Positions 7,342-37,360 of a stretch of 41,161 nucleotides of DNA are shown in pieces. Origin of the DNA: a virus. Position numbers and translations under genes: made by a program. The notes under the pieces are model-generated. The model ran no database searches, had not been told where the DNA came from, and worked only from the letters and a program-made list of their open reading frames with translations. Position 1 is the stretch's first letter. Every line of letters starts with the position of its first letter. The stretch is taken from UHGV virus genome UHGV-0045963, one strand, 5' to 3'.

Positions 7342-7358
7342 ATTACCTTTCGGGTAAT
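7342..7358. promoter_or_regulatory. 17-bp palindromic operator-like site ATTACCTTTCGGGTAAT
   Basis: Perfect inverted repeat of the ATTACC-N5-GGTAAT family; lies in the divergent region between tailspike and the LexA-box gene. Confidence 0.6.
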
Positions 7359-7394
7359 TTGCAAAACGTGCTGGATAGCAAACAAATTATTTGC

Positions 7395-7414
7395 TACTGT
7401 ATAAATATACAGTT
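7395..7414 (+). promoter_or_regulatory. LexA (SOS) box TACTGTATAAATATACAGTT
   Basis: CTGT-N8-ACAG with AT-rich centre, 18 of 20 matches to the consensus TACTGTATATATATACAGTA; ends 6 nt before the ATG at 7420. Confidence 0.7.
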
Positions 7415-7419
7415 ATTGC

Positions 7420-7692
7420 ATGGAGAATATTAAGATGCAGCAGTATCACTATCCACTGGAAGACGGATTTACCGAAAGGATTCACACGCCGGGAGGCGTC
7501 AGGTCACTGGTGGAGGGATCGCACTTGATGAAATTACTCCGGGATCTCGATAAGGATGGATTTAATGTCGATGGCCCACTTGCCGAACTGACTGCACTGA
7601 TTAACTACGTCACCAGCTCACAGATGTCTATGCAGGATCTGCAAACACATCTCGACTATTGTGCCGAACAATTACGAAAACAAACCCGGTAA
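7420..7692 (+). CDS. small antirepressor-like protein (standalone homologue of the Ant C-terminal domain); an alternative start is ATG 7435
   Basis: Residues RIHTPGGVRSLVEGSHLMKLLRDL...ELTALINYV...DLQTHLDYC align with the C-terminus of the 8843..9529 protein (LIHSPSGVLGLTENSLLMNLLNQL...ELTTMFCYI...DIQTHAEYI). Confidence 0.6.
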   Translation: MENIKMQQYHYPLEDGFTERIHTPGGVRSLVEGSHLMKLLRDLDKDGFNVDGPLAELTALINYVTSSQMSMQDLQTHLDYCAEQLRKQTR

Positions 7693-7698
7693 ATTTAA

Positions 7699-7716
7699 AG
7701 GCCGCAAGAGCGGCCT
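7699..7716. terminator. hairpin shared by the convergent genes 7420..7692 and 7715..8443
   Basis: AGGCCGC AAGA GCGGCCT stem-loop; overlaps the stop codon of the minus-strand gene. Confidence 0.45.
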
Positions 7717-8443
7717 ATCGTTTCGCTTTGTGCTCATCCCAGCACGTTTTGCACCATGCCATTAAGCCGTCCGCATTTTGATTATTAGGGTAAAAGCTGG
7801 TTCGTTTTCTGCGGACATTACAAATTGGGCACCACTTCATATGGCGTGTATTCTTTGGGCCATCGAGACACCTTGCACACCACTTAGTCAATCCATCTGG
7901 ATTTTTTGACGATTTCCTGAATTTTTCATATGGAAGGTTTATTCTGCATCGCAAGCACTGCTTGCTACCACTTGAAACTCTGTTAGCTGATTCTTCTTTT
8001 GGCGGCGATACAGAAGGTATTCTTGCTGGCTCTGATACTGCCTGAGGTGCTTTTTTAGATGACTGAGACGATATGTCATCACCAGGGAATCTTCCATGAT
8101 ATGCCGGACGCGTTGACACTCCAGGTGGAAGCTCAGCTGTAAACGGCTTTGGCTGAATCAGTTGCCTCTCTTTTGCTAACTCCTGCTGTTTATAATATGT
8201 CTGGATTACCGCACTATCATAAGCAGGAGGTGCGGAAATATTAGGCGCATTACCTCCAGTTTTTTGAAACTGAGTAGAGGTGTGTTCTATCACCTGTGTA
8301 CGATTAATCGTTATCTCCCCATCTTCGGTCTTTATCGTTTTGTTATGATTAACGACCGTACGATCAGAGATCTTAGTCTTGTTCTGGTTGATAACGTAAA
8401 TAATCACCGCAACCACACCAACAACTATCCAGAAAACTTCCAT
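7715..8443 (-). CDS. membrane-anchored protein with C-terminal tandem Cys4 zinc-ribbon-like repeats, unknown function
   Basis: N-terminal TM (VFWIVVGVVAVIIYVI), Ser/Pro/Gln-rich linker, two repeats C-x2-C ... WC-x-x-C (CLRCR...WCARC; CPICN...WCKTC); RBS GAGGAAAAGCA. Confidence 0.6.
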   Translation of the reverse strand: MEVFWIVVGVVAVIIYVINQNKTKISDRTVVNHNKTIKTEDGEITINRTQVIEHTSTQFQKTGGNAPNISAPPAYDSAVIQTYYKQQELAKERQLIQPKPFTAELPPGVSTRPAYHGRFPGDDISSQSSKKAPQAVSEPARIPSVSPPKEESANRVSSGSKQCLRCRINLPYEKFRKSSKNPDGLTKWCARCLDGPKNTRHMKWCPICNVRRKRTSFYPNNQNADGLMAWCKTCWDEHKAKR

Positions 8444-8462
8444 TGCTTTTCCTCACAATAAC

Positions 8463-8479
8463 ATTACCTTAAAGGTAAT
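8463..8479. promoter_or_regulatory. operator-like palindrome ATTACCTTAAAGGTAAT
   Basis: Perfect 17-bp inverted repeat between divergent genes 7715..8443 and ant. Confidence 0.6.
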
Positions 8480-8555
8480 ATCTTGCTTTCAGGTGATCAA
8501 GCGTTAAACGCAATCAACCAAATACGGTTGATTTTTATATTTATCAGCGTTTATC

Positions 8556-8572
8556 ATTACCTTTGCGGTAAA
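8556..8572. promoter_or_regulatory. operator-like palindrome ATTACCTTTGCGGTAAA
   Basis: Second copy 93 bp from the first, upstream of the ant leader. Confidence 0.55.
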
Positions 8573-8662
8573 TTTACATCGCACTCCTCTTGTGCCATAG
8601 TAATCGAGCACTGGCAAAATCCAGTGCCGGGATTTGCACCCCGGATTACTAAAAGGCGCATA

Positions 8663-8684
8663 CCACGCCAGACGTGGTTTTTTT
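8663..8684 (+). terminator. intrinsic terminator inside the ant leader
   Basis: Stem CCACG / CGTGG with loop CCAGA followed by T7; about 160 nt upstream of the ant ATG. Confidence 0.55.
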
Positions 8685-8842
8685 ATGCGTATAGCACAGT
8701 CATGCCAGAATTATGGTGGGACGTGCAGGGGCACCGAAAGGTGCGCCGGGTCCTTTTAGCCGGTAGTGCAAACCCTGTACGTCTCACCACCAACGAGATT
8801 TGCACCTCAGGTGGTGATTAACCATACTAAAAGGTGATTGCC

Positions 8843-36089: not shown

Positions 36090-36106
36090 ATTACCTTTGA
36101 GGTACG
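36090..36106. promoter_or_regulatory. operator-like site ATTACCTTTGAGGTACG
   Basis: Left half perfect, right half GGTAC; lies 19 bp from the artificial homopolymer/gap. Confidence 0.4.
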
Positions 36107-36124
36107 AATAGATATGAAAAGAAA

Positions 36125-36232
36125 CCCCCGGGGGGGGGGGGGGGGGGGGGGGGGGGGGNNNNNNNNNNNNNNNNNNNNNNNNNNNNNNNNNNNNNNNNAA
36201 AAAAAAAAAAAAAACCCCCCGGGGGGGGGGGG
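36125..36232. other. assembly gap (40 N) flanked by artificial homopolymer runs
   Basis: C5 G29 N40 A16 C6 G12; not biological sequence. Confidence 0.9.
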
Positions 36233-36256
36233 TCTACAGAGGGTTGTAGCTGGATA

Positions 36257-36487
36257 TCATGAGTAGAAGAAGTATGCCAGTTCTGCTTTTGAGCGCAGCC
36301 ATTGTCTTGTTTTACAGGCTTTAAAAAGCCCATTCATCAATACCTTACCTGGCATTTTGCGCTTACCTGTTAAGTGAGTCTGGATATAGTGACTCGTCGT
36401 TCCGGCTTCCTGTGCGAAGGCTTCACGCTCATCCGGAGTAAGTGCAAGCCAGTGCTTTTTGAAATCGAAATGTCCGTTATCGCTCAT
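36257..36487 (-). CDS. Cro-like small HTH regulator
   Basis: 76 aa with HTH-like segment LTPDEREAFAQEAGTTSHYIQTHL; divergent from the repressor gene with operator-like sites between them. Confidence 0.6.
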   Translation of the reverse strand: MSDNGHFDFKKHWLALTPDEREAFAQEAGTTSHYIQTHLTGKRKMPGKVLMNGLFKACKTRQWLRSKAELAYFFYS

Positions 36488-36570
36488 AGCTATTGCCTGA
36501 TATTTATTTCAGATAATAAATATTCACCCATAAGGTAACAAAAATCAAGGATAGTTACCTACGGGGTGCA

Positions 36571-36587
36571 TTTACCTGTTGGGTAAT
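36571..36587. promoter_or_regulatory. operator-like site TTTACCTGTTGGGTAAT in the cro/cI divergent region
   Basis: TTACC-N5-GGTAA; additional half-sites GGTAAC (36534..36539) and GTTACC (36554..36559) nearby. Confidence 0.55.
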
Positions 36588-36641
36588 ATTGCTTTAAATT
36601 GAATCATCTACTGATTCATATATGAGGCGATTTTCCAGAAA

Positions 36642-37226
36642 ATGAAAAGTATCCAGGACGTCCGCAGGCAAAATCTCAACGACTTGATCGACCGTGAATT
36701 CAATGGTGTTCAGACGCGGATGGCAGAAAAACTTGGAACTCAGGCAAATCTGGTAAACCGCTGGGCTCTTGGCAAGAAGGTTATCGGCGACCAGGTTGCA
36801 CGAAAAATTGAAGCTGCCGCCAATAAACCCCGTAACTGGCTTGATATTGATCGTTCGCTTTCTCAGGAGGGTTTTCAGCCTGTCGGCCCGAGCGATATAG
36901 GTCAGCTGGCGGCTCACAACCTGGAACGCTGGATGAGCGAAAGCCGCGACCTTTCAACACAGGGAAAACTTCACCGCGCATCCGGCGTCGCCCAGGTGAC
37001 AATCAGCCGCCTGTTAAACAATGAGGTCAGCGTTTCCATTTCCACTCTGGAGAATGTTGCATCCGCATTCGGGCGTCACGGATATGAACTACTGATTCAC
37101 CCGCACGACCCTGCGACTATCAACTATGACCGCTCACGCTACGCATTGTTACCCGAAACCGAGAAAGCAAAGATCGAAAGTTACATTGAATTTGTCATCA
37201 ACCAGAACGAAAAAAGCAAACAATAA
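36642..37226 (+). CDS. CI-like repressor with two XRE-type HTH regions and no recognisable LexA-like autocleavage domain
   Basis: 194 aa; HTH-like segments near residues 25-45 and 115-135; no Ala-Gly/Cys-Gly plus Ser/Lys S24 motifs seen; no SD sequence before the ATG; followed by a terminator and OL-like operators. Confidence 0.65.
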   Translation: MKSIQDVRRQNLNDLIDREFNGVQTRMAEKLGTQANLVNRWALGKKVIGDQVARKIEAAANKPRNWLDIDRSLSQEGFQPVGPSDIGQLAAHNLERWMSESRDLSTQGKLHRASGVAQVTISRLLNNEVSVSISTLENVASAFGRHGYELLIHPHDPATINYDRSRYALLPETEKAKIESYIEFVINQNEKSKQ

Positions 37227-37248
37227 AACTATAGTTTTCAGTAAGTAA

Positions 37249-37269
37249 GCCGCCTCATGCGGCTTTTTT
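37249..37269 (+). terminator. intrinsic terminator after the repressor gene
   Basis: Stem GCCGC / GCGGC with loop CTCAT followed by T6. Confidence 0.7.
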
Positions 37270-37282
37270 ATTGCCAGATAGA

Positions 37283-37299
37283 TTACCTTACGGGTAATT
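37283..37299. promoter_or_regulatory. operator-like palindrome ATTACCTTACGGGTAAT (OL-like)
   Basis: Perfect inverted repeat just after the repressor terminator. Confidence 0.6.
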
Positions 37300-37343
37300 T
37301 TTTTAACTCATATCTATTGACACCAAACCAAATAAGCATAATT

Positions 37344-37360
37344 ATTACCTCAACGGTAAC
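37344..37360. promoter_or_regulatory. operator-like palindrome ATTACCTCAACGGTAAC overlapping a pL-like promoter
   Basis: TTGACA at 37317..37322, a -10-like CATAATTAT about 15 nt downstream, operator overlapping and just downstream; precedes the leftward early genes. Confidence 0.6.

Follow-up and report, generated by a model that had tools for sequence, protein, structure and literature searches.

The viral genome UHGV-0045963, a stretch of 41,161 nucleotides that we refer to as the window, carries an integrated epsilon15/phiV10-like podophage of the genus Uetakevirus, a prophage of Escherichia coli. Its immunity region, ~97% identical to those of Escherichia phages phiV10, phiv142-3, and PAS61, contains the gene for a 194-amino-acid (aa) cI-like repressor, Rep, a divergent gene for a Cro-like protein, and several copies of a 17-bp palindrome, ATTACC-N5-GGTAAT, that recurs far outside this region. 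For the accessory region, the nearest match is TL-2011b. An att core published earlier, ATTGAGTGGGAATGATT (PMC9782041), lies at 1888-1904 and marks the prophage end, and other phage genomes match from 1888 onwards only. The window is thus an integrated prophage with ~1.9 kb of flank, the integrase end lying beyond its right edge.

The palindrome is symmetric (6-5-6) and was searched for as ATTACCNNNNNGGTAAT, with the expectation taken from dinucleotide-preserving shuffles. Four perfect copies are present in the window (7342, 8463, 34151, and 37282) against 0.00 expected, and 12 copies with at most one mismatch (adding 8556, 9601, 27124, 30269, 30287, 34089, 36571, and 37344) against 0.02. Allowing two mismatches gives 15 copies against 1.48 and adds 36090 together with matches at 3453 and 17850; the latter two lie inside genes, in the number expected by chance, and were rejected as operators. 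A weight matrix built from 13 sites scores those sites at 14.2 to 26.0 bits; the next-best match is also intergenic (36523, 12.2 bits), and the matches inside genes all score 11.7 bits or less. All 13 sites, which occupy about nine control regions over 30 kb, are intergenic, in a prophage of which 7.9% is intergenic on our gene map (P ~4.5e-15 for uniform placement). A pattern-free count of hyphenated palindromes also finds TTACC-N5-GGTAA to be the most frequent one in the window (11 copies; the palindrome ranked second has 4). As background, the top palindrome counts only 3 to 5 in three unrelated or distant phage genomes, and the more distant structural relatives Pseudomonas HU1 and Vibrio 1.185.O, which served as background only, have no dominant palindrome. 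These counts bear out the repeated, intergenic occurrence described in the original prediction. Its coordinates were right except that the copy given as 37283 starts at 37282, and it had missed the adjacent pair 30269/30287 directly upstream of terS, the small-terminase gene.

The 194-aa protein aligns over its full length with the Rep of SPC32H (PDB 5D50_A, E 3.5e-42) and is 99.5% identical to gp40 of phiV10. No peptidase family is found among its PHROG matches, and there is no sign of a self-cleaving (S24-type) C-terminal domain. Rep is reported, by Kim and Ryu in 2013, not to be cleaved in the SOS response. Rep has been described as binding palindromic DNA as a tetramer, with the DNA-binding pairs formed across dimers, and as being broken out of the tetrameric state by the antirepressor Ant (PMC9638917). 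In its C-terminal tetramerisation domain, Rep is similar to the looping domain of Rco, the repressor of plasmid pLS20, and the structural mechanism of Rep repression "has not been extensively characterized" (PMC9986798). In the window, a close match to Ant is encoded behind a LexA box, the only one in the window. Downstream of it, a second antirepressor gene follows an isrK-like RNA and a C4 RNA; residues 145-226 of its Bro-N protein match phrog_450, the same family as the small Ant. These elements make up a predicted second antirepressor module, RNA-guarded like immI of phage P1 and standing beside the LexA-controlled ant. By homology, the window's system belongs to the epsilon15/SPC32H Rep-Ant system and is of an already annotated kind. 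It is highly likely that the window carries 13 good operators and two weak ones of this SPC32H-type repressor (Table 1).

Table 1. Genes, RNAs, and putative operators of the Rep-Ant system in the window
Feature	Positions	Strand	Sequence or match	Remarks
ant, small antirepressor	7435-7692	+	PDB 5D50_E "Anti-repressor protein", E 4.4e-47; phrog_450	
LexA box upstream of ant	7395-7414		TACTGTATAAATATACAGTT	2 mismatches to the 20-nt consensus
isrK-like small RNA	8608-8684	+	Rfam, 67.4 bits, above gathering score	Hfq-binding type
C4 antisense RNA	8709-8794	+	Rfam, 77.8 bits, above gathering score	
Second antirepressor, Bro-N plus C-terminal Ant-type domain	8843-9529	+	Pfam Bro-N, E 1.5e-19; phrog_130 Ant	
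cro-like gene, 76 aa	36257-36487	-	phrog_35 "transcriptional repressor", E 5.6e-13	Divergent from rep
rep, 194-aa immunity repressor	36642-37226	+		N-terminal helix-turn-helix, middle dimerisation domain, C-terminal tetramerisation/Ant-binding part
Tailspike/ant operator	7342-7358		Perfect copy	In the divergent tailspike/ant control region
Operator upstream of the 242-aa gene (7715-8443, minus strand)	8463-8479		Perfect copy	19 nt upstream of that gene; 93 bp upstream partner of 8556
immI-like module operator	8556-8572		At most 1 mismatch	Overlaps -10 of predicted promoter TTGATT-18-TATCAT (8528-8557)
Moron operon operator	9601-9617			Before small membrane-protein genes; overlaps -10 of predicted promoter TTGCAG(9574-9579)-17-TACTAT(9597-9602)
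Head/tail-operon operator	27124-27140			Upstream of the small gene preceding portal; divergent from tRNA-Arg
Second terS operator	30269-30285			Lies over the ribosome-binding site, one base ahead of the inferred start codon of terS (ATG 30267)
First terS operator	30287-30303			Just after terminator 30339-30322; abutted by -10-like TACTAT
nin-region operator O2	34089-34105		At most 1 mismatch	Overlaps -10 of the predicted minus-strand nin promoter
nin-region upstream operator O1	34151-34167		Perfect copy	62 bp upstream of 34089
Weaker operator behind the cro-like gene	36090-36106		2 mismatches	-10-overlap geometry on the plus strand, toward cro and rep
OR operator nearest cro	36523-36539		TTCACCCATAAGGTAAC; 12.2 bits	In PR spacer/-10
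Middle OR site	36554-36570		GTTACCTACGGGGTGCA; 5.4 bits	Degenerate; adjoins the 36571 site, 17 bp centre to centre
OR operator nearest rep	36571-36587		TTTACCTGTTGGGTAAT	Overlaps putative PRM -35, TTTACC
OL upstream operator O1	37282-37298		Perfect copy	62 bp from partner 37344
OL operator O2	37344-37360		At most 1 mismatch	Overlaps predicted PL -10/+1

The sites flank rep on both sides, at 36523-36587 and at 37282/37344. OR, between the divergent rep and cro-like genes, comprises three sites spaced 17 and 30 bp. We compared six genomes, those of the window, phiV10, epsilon15, SPC32H, Enterobacter phage Tyrion, and Klebsiella phage BUCT711. In the OR alignment, the GGTAAA/TTTACC of the site at 36571 is invariant in all six, and so is the TTGATTTTT -35 region of the predicted minus-strand PR (TTGATT at 36548-36543, 17 bp, GAATAT at 36525-36520). 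At the middle OR position, where the window's site is degenerate, epsilon15 has a good site (33357). On the far side of rep, the predicted PL is TTGACA-17-AATTAT (37317-37345); the last two bases of its -10 are the first two of operator 37344, which covers about -8 to +9 of the promoter in a layout that is alike in the six genomes. The site behind the cro-like gene is kept in phiV10 and has syntenic counterparts in Tyrion, epsilon15, SPC32H, and BUCT711. There, ATTTGGTT-TTTTAT on the plus strand runs directly into the operator's TACC, an arrangement that resembles an establishment (PRE-like) or antisense (oop-like) promoter. The original prediction had placed a gene in the cII position beside this site; the open reading frame in question (36091-36333) is unreliable because it spans an assembly artefact or gap at ~36125-36233, with runs of C, G, N, A, C, and G.

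Away from the immunity region, the operators also sit on or beside predicted promoters. The nin promoter, predicted on the minus strand as TTGATT(34132-34127)-17-TTTAAT(34109-34104), lies between the two nin-region operators, in a layout that is the same in all six genomes; operator 34089 additionally lies over the DUF1064 gene's ribosome-binding site (ATG 34086). A scanner had proposed another promoter, TCGATA-16-TAAAAT, over operator 34151, which we set aside in favor of the one between both operators, conserved in the six genomes. The two terS operators abut each other directly behind a terminator, the start of terS being inferred from the annotations of epsilon15, SPC32H, and Tyrion. In the immI-like module, operator 8556 both overlaps one predicted -10 and abuts the -35 of a second predicted promoter, TTTACA-17-CATAGT (8573-8601), whose start coincides with the 5' end of isrK. 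At the PL, nin, immI-like, and 9601 promoters, the first two bases of the operator are the last two of the -10. Counted over the 13 good sites, six share bases with a predicted -10, and the majority of the remainder flank a predicted promoter. The 62-63 bp spacing of the operator pairs is kept in all six genomes, and the spacings of 62 and 93 bp correspond to 5.9 and 8.9 helical turns.

In phiV10, epsilon15, SPC32H, Tyrion, and BUCT711, too, this palindrome ranks first, and its positions are syntenic. In epsilon15, which has a homologous repressor gene, the GenBank record (AY150271.2) contains seven "protein_bind / repressor / lysogeny" features, and these are exactly its seven perfect copies: one before terS, one before the small pre-portal gene, one in the ant/tailspike region, three at OL, and one before a nin-region gene. 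Each annotated location has a counterpart in the window; the 30287 site is syntenic with 12-27, 27124 corresponds to 2931-2947, and 7342 to 19895-19911. The record marks perfect copies only, with no OR sites, promoter geometry, or pairing, and literature text searches for descriptions of the motif or operator in Uetakevirus returned nothing relevant. The window differs from epsilon15 in its Rep (only 43% identical), in having two OL sites rather than three, in lacking a site before the lysis genes, and in its extra sites at the immI-like antirepressor module and the moron operon; the location matching the int-proximal site of epsilon15 falls outside the window. SPC32H (PDB 5D50, 5D4Z), whose Rep is a full-length homologue, carries the palindrome at the same places as the window, but the C-terminal two-thirds of Rep are only ~36% identical, and the window has, unlike SPC32H, a second Ant-domain protein, fused to Bro-N, behind the isrK and C4 RNAs. 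The predicted direct control of dispersed operons, which had been called unusual, is so only relative to lambda; within the genus such an arrangement is the norm, and the annotation of the epsilon15 genome already included it.

Alignments of the control regions reveal the half-sites as invariant islands in otherwise diverged intergenic DNA. The same holds within populations. A full-length alignment search with Rep retrieved 80 viral contigs whose Rep is 99-100% identical; altogether, the repressor is found in over 300 related viral contigs. In the 76 to 80 contigs used, 5 of 84 half-site positions in the OR, OL, and nin control regions are polymorphic, against 86 of 339 other intergenic positions (Fisher p = 4e-5, indicative only, as the positions are linked), and variability is among the highest in the N5 centres. 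The half-sites are under purifying selection, and the N5 centre is free to vary. This pattern bears on whether any phage protein reads the motif at all. Several control regions look paralogous, with CTATTGA -35 regions and TGTGGTT spacers common to PL-like and nin-like promoters, and the palindrome might accordingly be a by-product of duplicated promoter modules, or else a site for a host transcription factor. However, N5 and flanks vary around fixed half-sites, in comparisons across genera as well as among 80 near-identical prophages; phages from four host genera have the motif flanking their repressor gene; and a homologous DNA-binding domain is found with the same half-site in a Pseudomonas phage. 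We give this explanation almost no credence.

That Pseudomonas phage, the lambdoid siphophage PseuP_224, encodes a cI with an N-terminal domain 39% identical to that of Rep and a long, different C-terminal part. Its genome contains four copies of TTACC-N4-GGTAA in all, a pair to either side of cI. The phage has a Q antiterminator, and its cro candidate is unrelated to the Cro-like protein of the window. The half-site appears to travel with the Rep-type DNA-binding domain, because PseuP_224 shares the domain and the half-site but not cro. In Moraxella phage Mcat9, which has a weak homologue of the Rep N-terminal domain, no clear palindrome was found. The homology of Rep, the OR/OL-like flanking of its gene, the repressor annotation in epsilon15, and PseuP_224 together speak for the original assignment of the motif to the cI-like 194-aa protein.

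In classical switches such as those of lambda and P22, Cro and the repressor share operators. The 76-aa Cro-like protein could thus be the main ligand of the dispersed sites, with Rep mattering chiefly at OR and OL; made early from PR, it would damp the early promoters and/or switch late operons on via the upstream sites. Its membership of a "transcriptional repressor" family and its invariant putative recognition stretch, AGTTSHYIQ.HLT, fit such a role. Moreover, the Cro-like protein, 58-100% identical across the genus, is better conserved than Rep (76% versus 43% between the phiV10 and epsilon15 types), so conservation alone cannot tell which of the two proteins constrains the sites. What separates them is, first, PseuP_224, where the same half-site accompanies the Rep-type N-terminal domain only; second, the epsilon15 record, which assigns the sites to the repressor; and third, the 62-bp pairs, which fit a tetramer, and of the two proteins it is Rep that is documented to form one (PMC9638917). 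We consider a leading role for the Cro-like protein unlikely.

The reading we favor, and regard as very probably correct, is that the palindrome is the operator of Rep and that the repressor directly shuts each operon, the late ones included. Direct control of late and accessory operons, as originally proposed, is the best inference because the copies before those operons are conserved genus-wide. From the sequence we infer Rep binding to the sites, looping, and late-promoter repression as follows. One N-terminal helix-turn-helix domain of Rep would read each TTACC half-site, and the operators would cover the PR/PRM, PL, nin, terminase/late, head, tailspike/ant, immI-like, and moron promoters and the promoter-like site behind cro. 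At the PL, nin, and immI-like promoters, one operator would lie on the -10/+1 with a partner upstream on the same helix face, at 62 bp or, in the immI-like case, 93 bp; since Rep is tetrameric, both sites of a pair could be held at once, locking the promoter in a small loop. In the lysogen, every operon would be shut independently, beyond the two early promoters. Upon DNA damage, LexA would leave the ant promoter, Ant would take the Rep tetramers apart, and all the operons would be released together.

Several points besides the conservation of the Cro-like protein weigh against this reading. The repressor-site annotation of epsilon15 may be purely computational. An experimental hint in favor comes from a close relative: overexpression of the repressor of phage ZX5, which has the same sequence as that of phiV10 and is 99.5% identical to the window's Rep, cut the endolysin and holin transcripts by >99.9% (PMC9782041), although such a drop could reflect either direct or indirect repression. 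Within OR, it is the putative rep promoter that is overlapped by the strongest site, and PR by the weakest, the reverse of lambda logic. For the sites at 7342, 27124, and 8463, the position is upstream of the likely promoters (~-60 to -80) and the core promoter itself is free of operators, which is weak placement for simple steric repression. Finally, all promoters considered here, together with their starts, are consensus predictions.

Beside some of these upstream-only sites lies a second conserved element, CATAT(G/A)TGGTT, found on the minus strand of the window at 3873-3882, 7303-7312, 27073-27082, and 34110-34119. It stands before the tailspike, head, and nin operons, 31-34 bp downstream of the operator (43 bp at the head operon), and is invariant in six genomes. 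In relatives it also precedes the lysis operon; the window's lysis copy, at 3873, has no upstream operator. Indeed, the lysis cassette (3813-4118) has an upstream operator in phiV10, epsilon15, SPC32H, and Tyrion, and in the window none, though the CATATATGGTT element is kept. The -35 hexamers of the promoters with this element are weak, and it may be an activator-dependent late-promoter element. A search with the combined pattern TGTGGTT-N6-GGTAATA gave no matches because the spacing varies.

Given poor -35 hexamers, an element at a fixed distance downstream of the operator in six of six genomes, and no second operator over the core promoter at the tailspike, head, and lysis places, the upstream-only palindromes (tailspike and head; lysis in relatives) might be activator sites of a class I-like kind, in line with the shared activator site that the original prediction gave as an alternative, at ~-60 to -80, from which Rep or Cro recruits RNA polymerase to weak promoters instead of repressing them. 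However, the same upstream position is occupied at PL and nin, where the partner on the -10/+1 clearly indicates repression, and overexpressed Rep lowers lysis-gene transcripts in ZX5 (PMC9782041). There is also a separate activator candidate in the early-left operon, a PerC-like phrog_868 protein (40169-40468). Activation from these sites seems to us very unlikely.

Returning to repression by Rep, the DNA specificity of the repressor itself appears not to have drifted across the genus. The four Rep types are 43-78% identical, the E. coli type being 43-45% identical to the Salmonella and Klebsiella types (53% in the N-terminal domain, ~36% in the rest), and the recognition helix N36-L-V-N-R-W41 is invariant in all four. 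Thus, in the Reps of E. coli, Salmonella, Enterobacter, and Klebsiella phages, which have diverged to 43%, recognition helix and half-site are identical; repressor-operator covariation within the genus finds no variation to work on. Specificity appears frozen because one protein must read all 13-18 dispersed operators. Were specificity frozen, immunity or induction specificity might diversify in the tetramerisation/Ant-binding part instead. Separately, the single operators at a fixed distance upstream of the conserved CATATGTGGTT late-promoter element may mark an undescribed class of late promoter, gated directly by the repressor. We think these two readings rather doubtful.

Among systems outside the genus, the closest architectural analogue is the dispersed C1 operators of phage P1. 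The C1 repressor has 22 of them to bind, and c4 RNA guards an antirepressor operon there (PMC8546580). In both phages a single immunity repressor would serve operators at numerous separate operons, next to a C4-guarded antirepressor operon, a likeness by analogy of architecture. The P1 operator is an asymmetric 17-mer, ATTGCTCTAATAAATTT (PMC8546580), whereas the window's operator has 6-5-6 symmetry. P1, moreover, is a myovirus whose prophage is a plasmid, and Rep matches SPC32H Rep and helix-turn-helix families, homology to C1 not being expected. The original prediction had instead described the arrangement as stoperator-like. The stoperators of Cluster A mycobacteriophages (L5 gp71 type) likewise spread many repressor sites over the genome in short intergenic spaces, but they are asymmetric 13-mers, bound by a monomer via two domains in an orientation-dependent manner, and block elongation (PMC9283540). 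The sites in the window are palindromic, and so without orientation; many form pairs in helical phase, and most are found at promoters, over or beside them. We rejected membership of the stoperator class on the symmetry of the sites, and only 30269 and 36090 could plausibly act as roadblocks. With lambda, the window shares 17-bp symmetric operators, three sites between the divergent rep and cro genes, and operators at the early leftward promoter that directly follows the repressor gene. Unlike lambda, its Rep has no RecA-cleavable domain and induction would run through an antirepressor, and operators are also found before the terS, head, tailspike, and nin operons. PseuP_224, lambdoid and with a related DNA-binding domain and a Q antiterminator, has its sites confined to the flanks of cI.

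In this common family of E. coli and Salmonella prophages, the arrangement would show how a whole genome is kept silent. With a repressor site at each operon, the lysis, tailspike, and packaging genes could be shielded locally from leaky or read-through transcription, and upon induction one antirepressor could release all operons together. The site list and promoter geometry may offer engineering targets for reporter phages of the phiV10 and SPC32H types and an aid in reading prophage RNA sequencing data. The scientific gain is modest, since the epsilon15 annotation had this motif and its distribution before; the present prophage brings a few extra controlled modules.

Some neighboring features of the window deserve mention. 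A tRNA-Arg(TCT) gene (27462-27538, plus strand) is divergent from the head operon, in the same control region as operator 27124, and SPC32H also has a tRNA-Arg at the matching position. The 242-aa protein encoded on the minus strand at 7715-8443, starting 19 nt from operator 8463, combines a membrane helix at its N-terminus with cysteine-rich repeats at its C-terminus; it belongs to phrog_6762 and gives weak matches to endonuclease VII, Lar-like, and Stc1 proteins. The flank (1-1887) codes for a glycine-zipper/TraT-like lipoprotein (722-1240) and a DUF5384 protein (1256-1795); 27 phage records have some match to it, and among the matches listed TL-2011b alone matches it in full.

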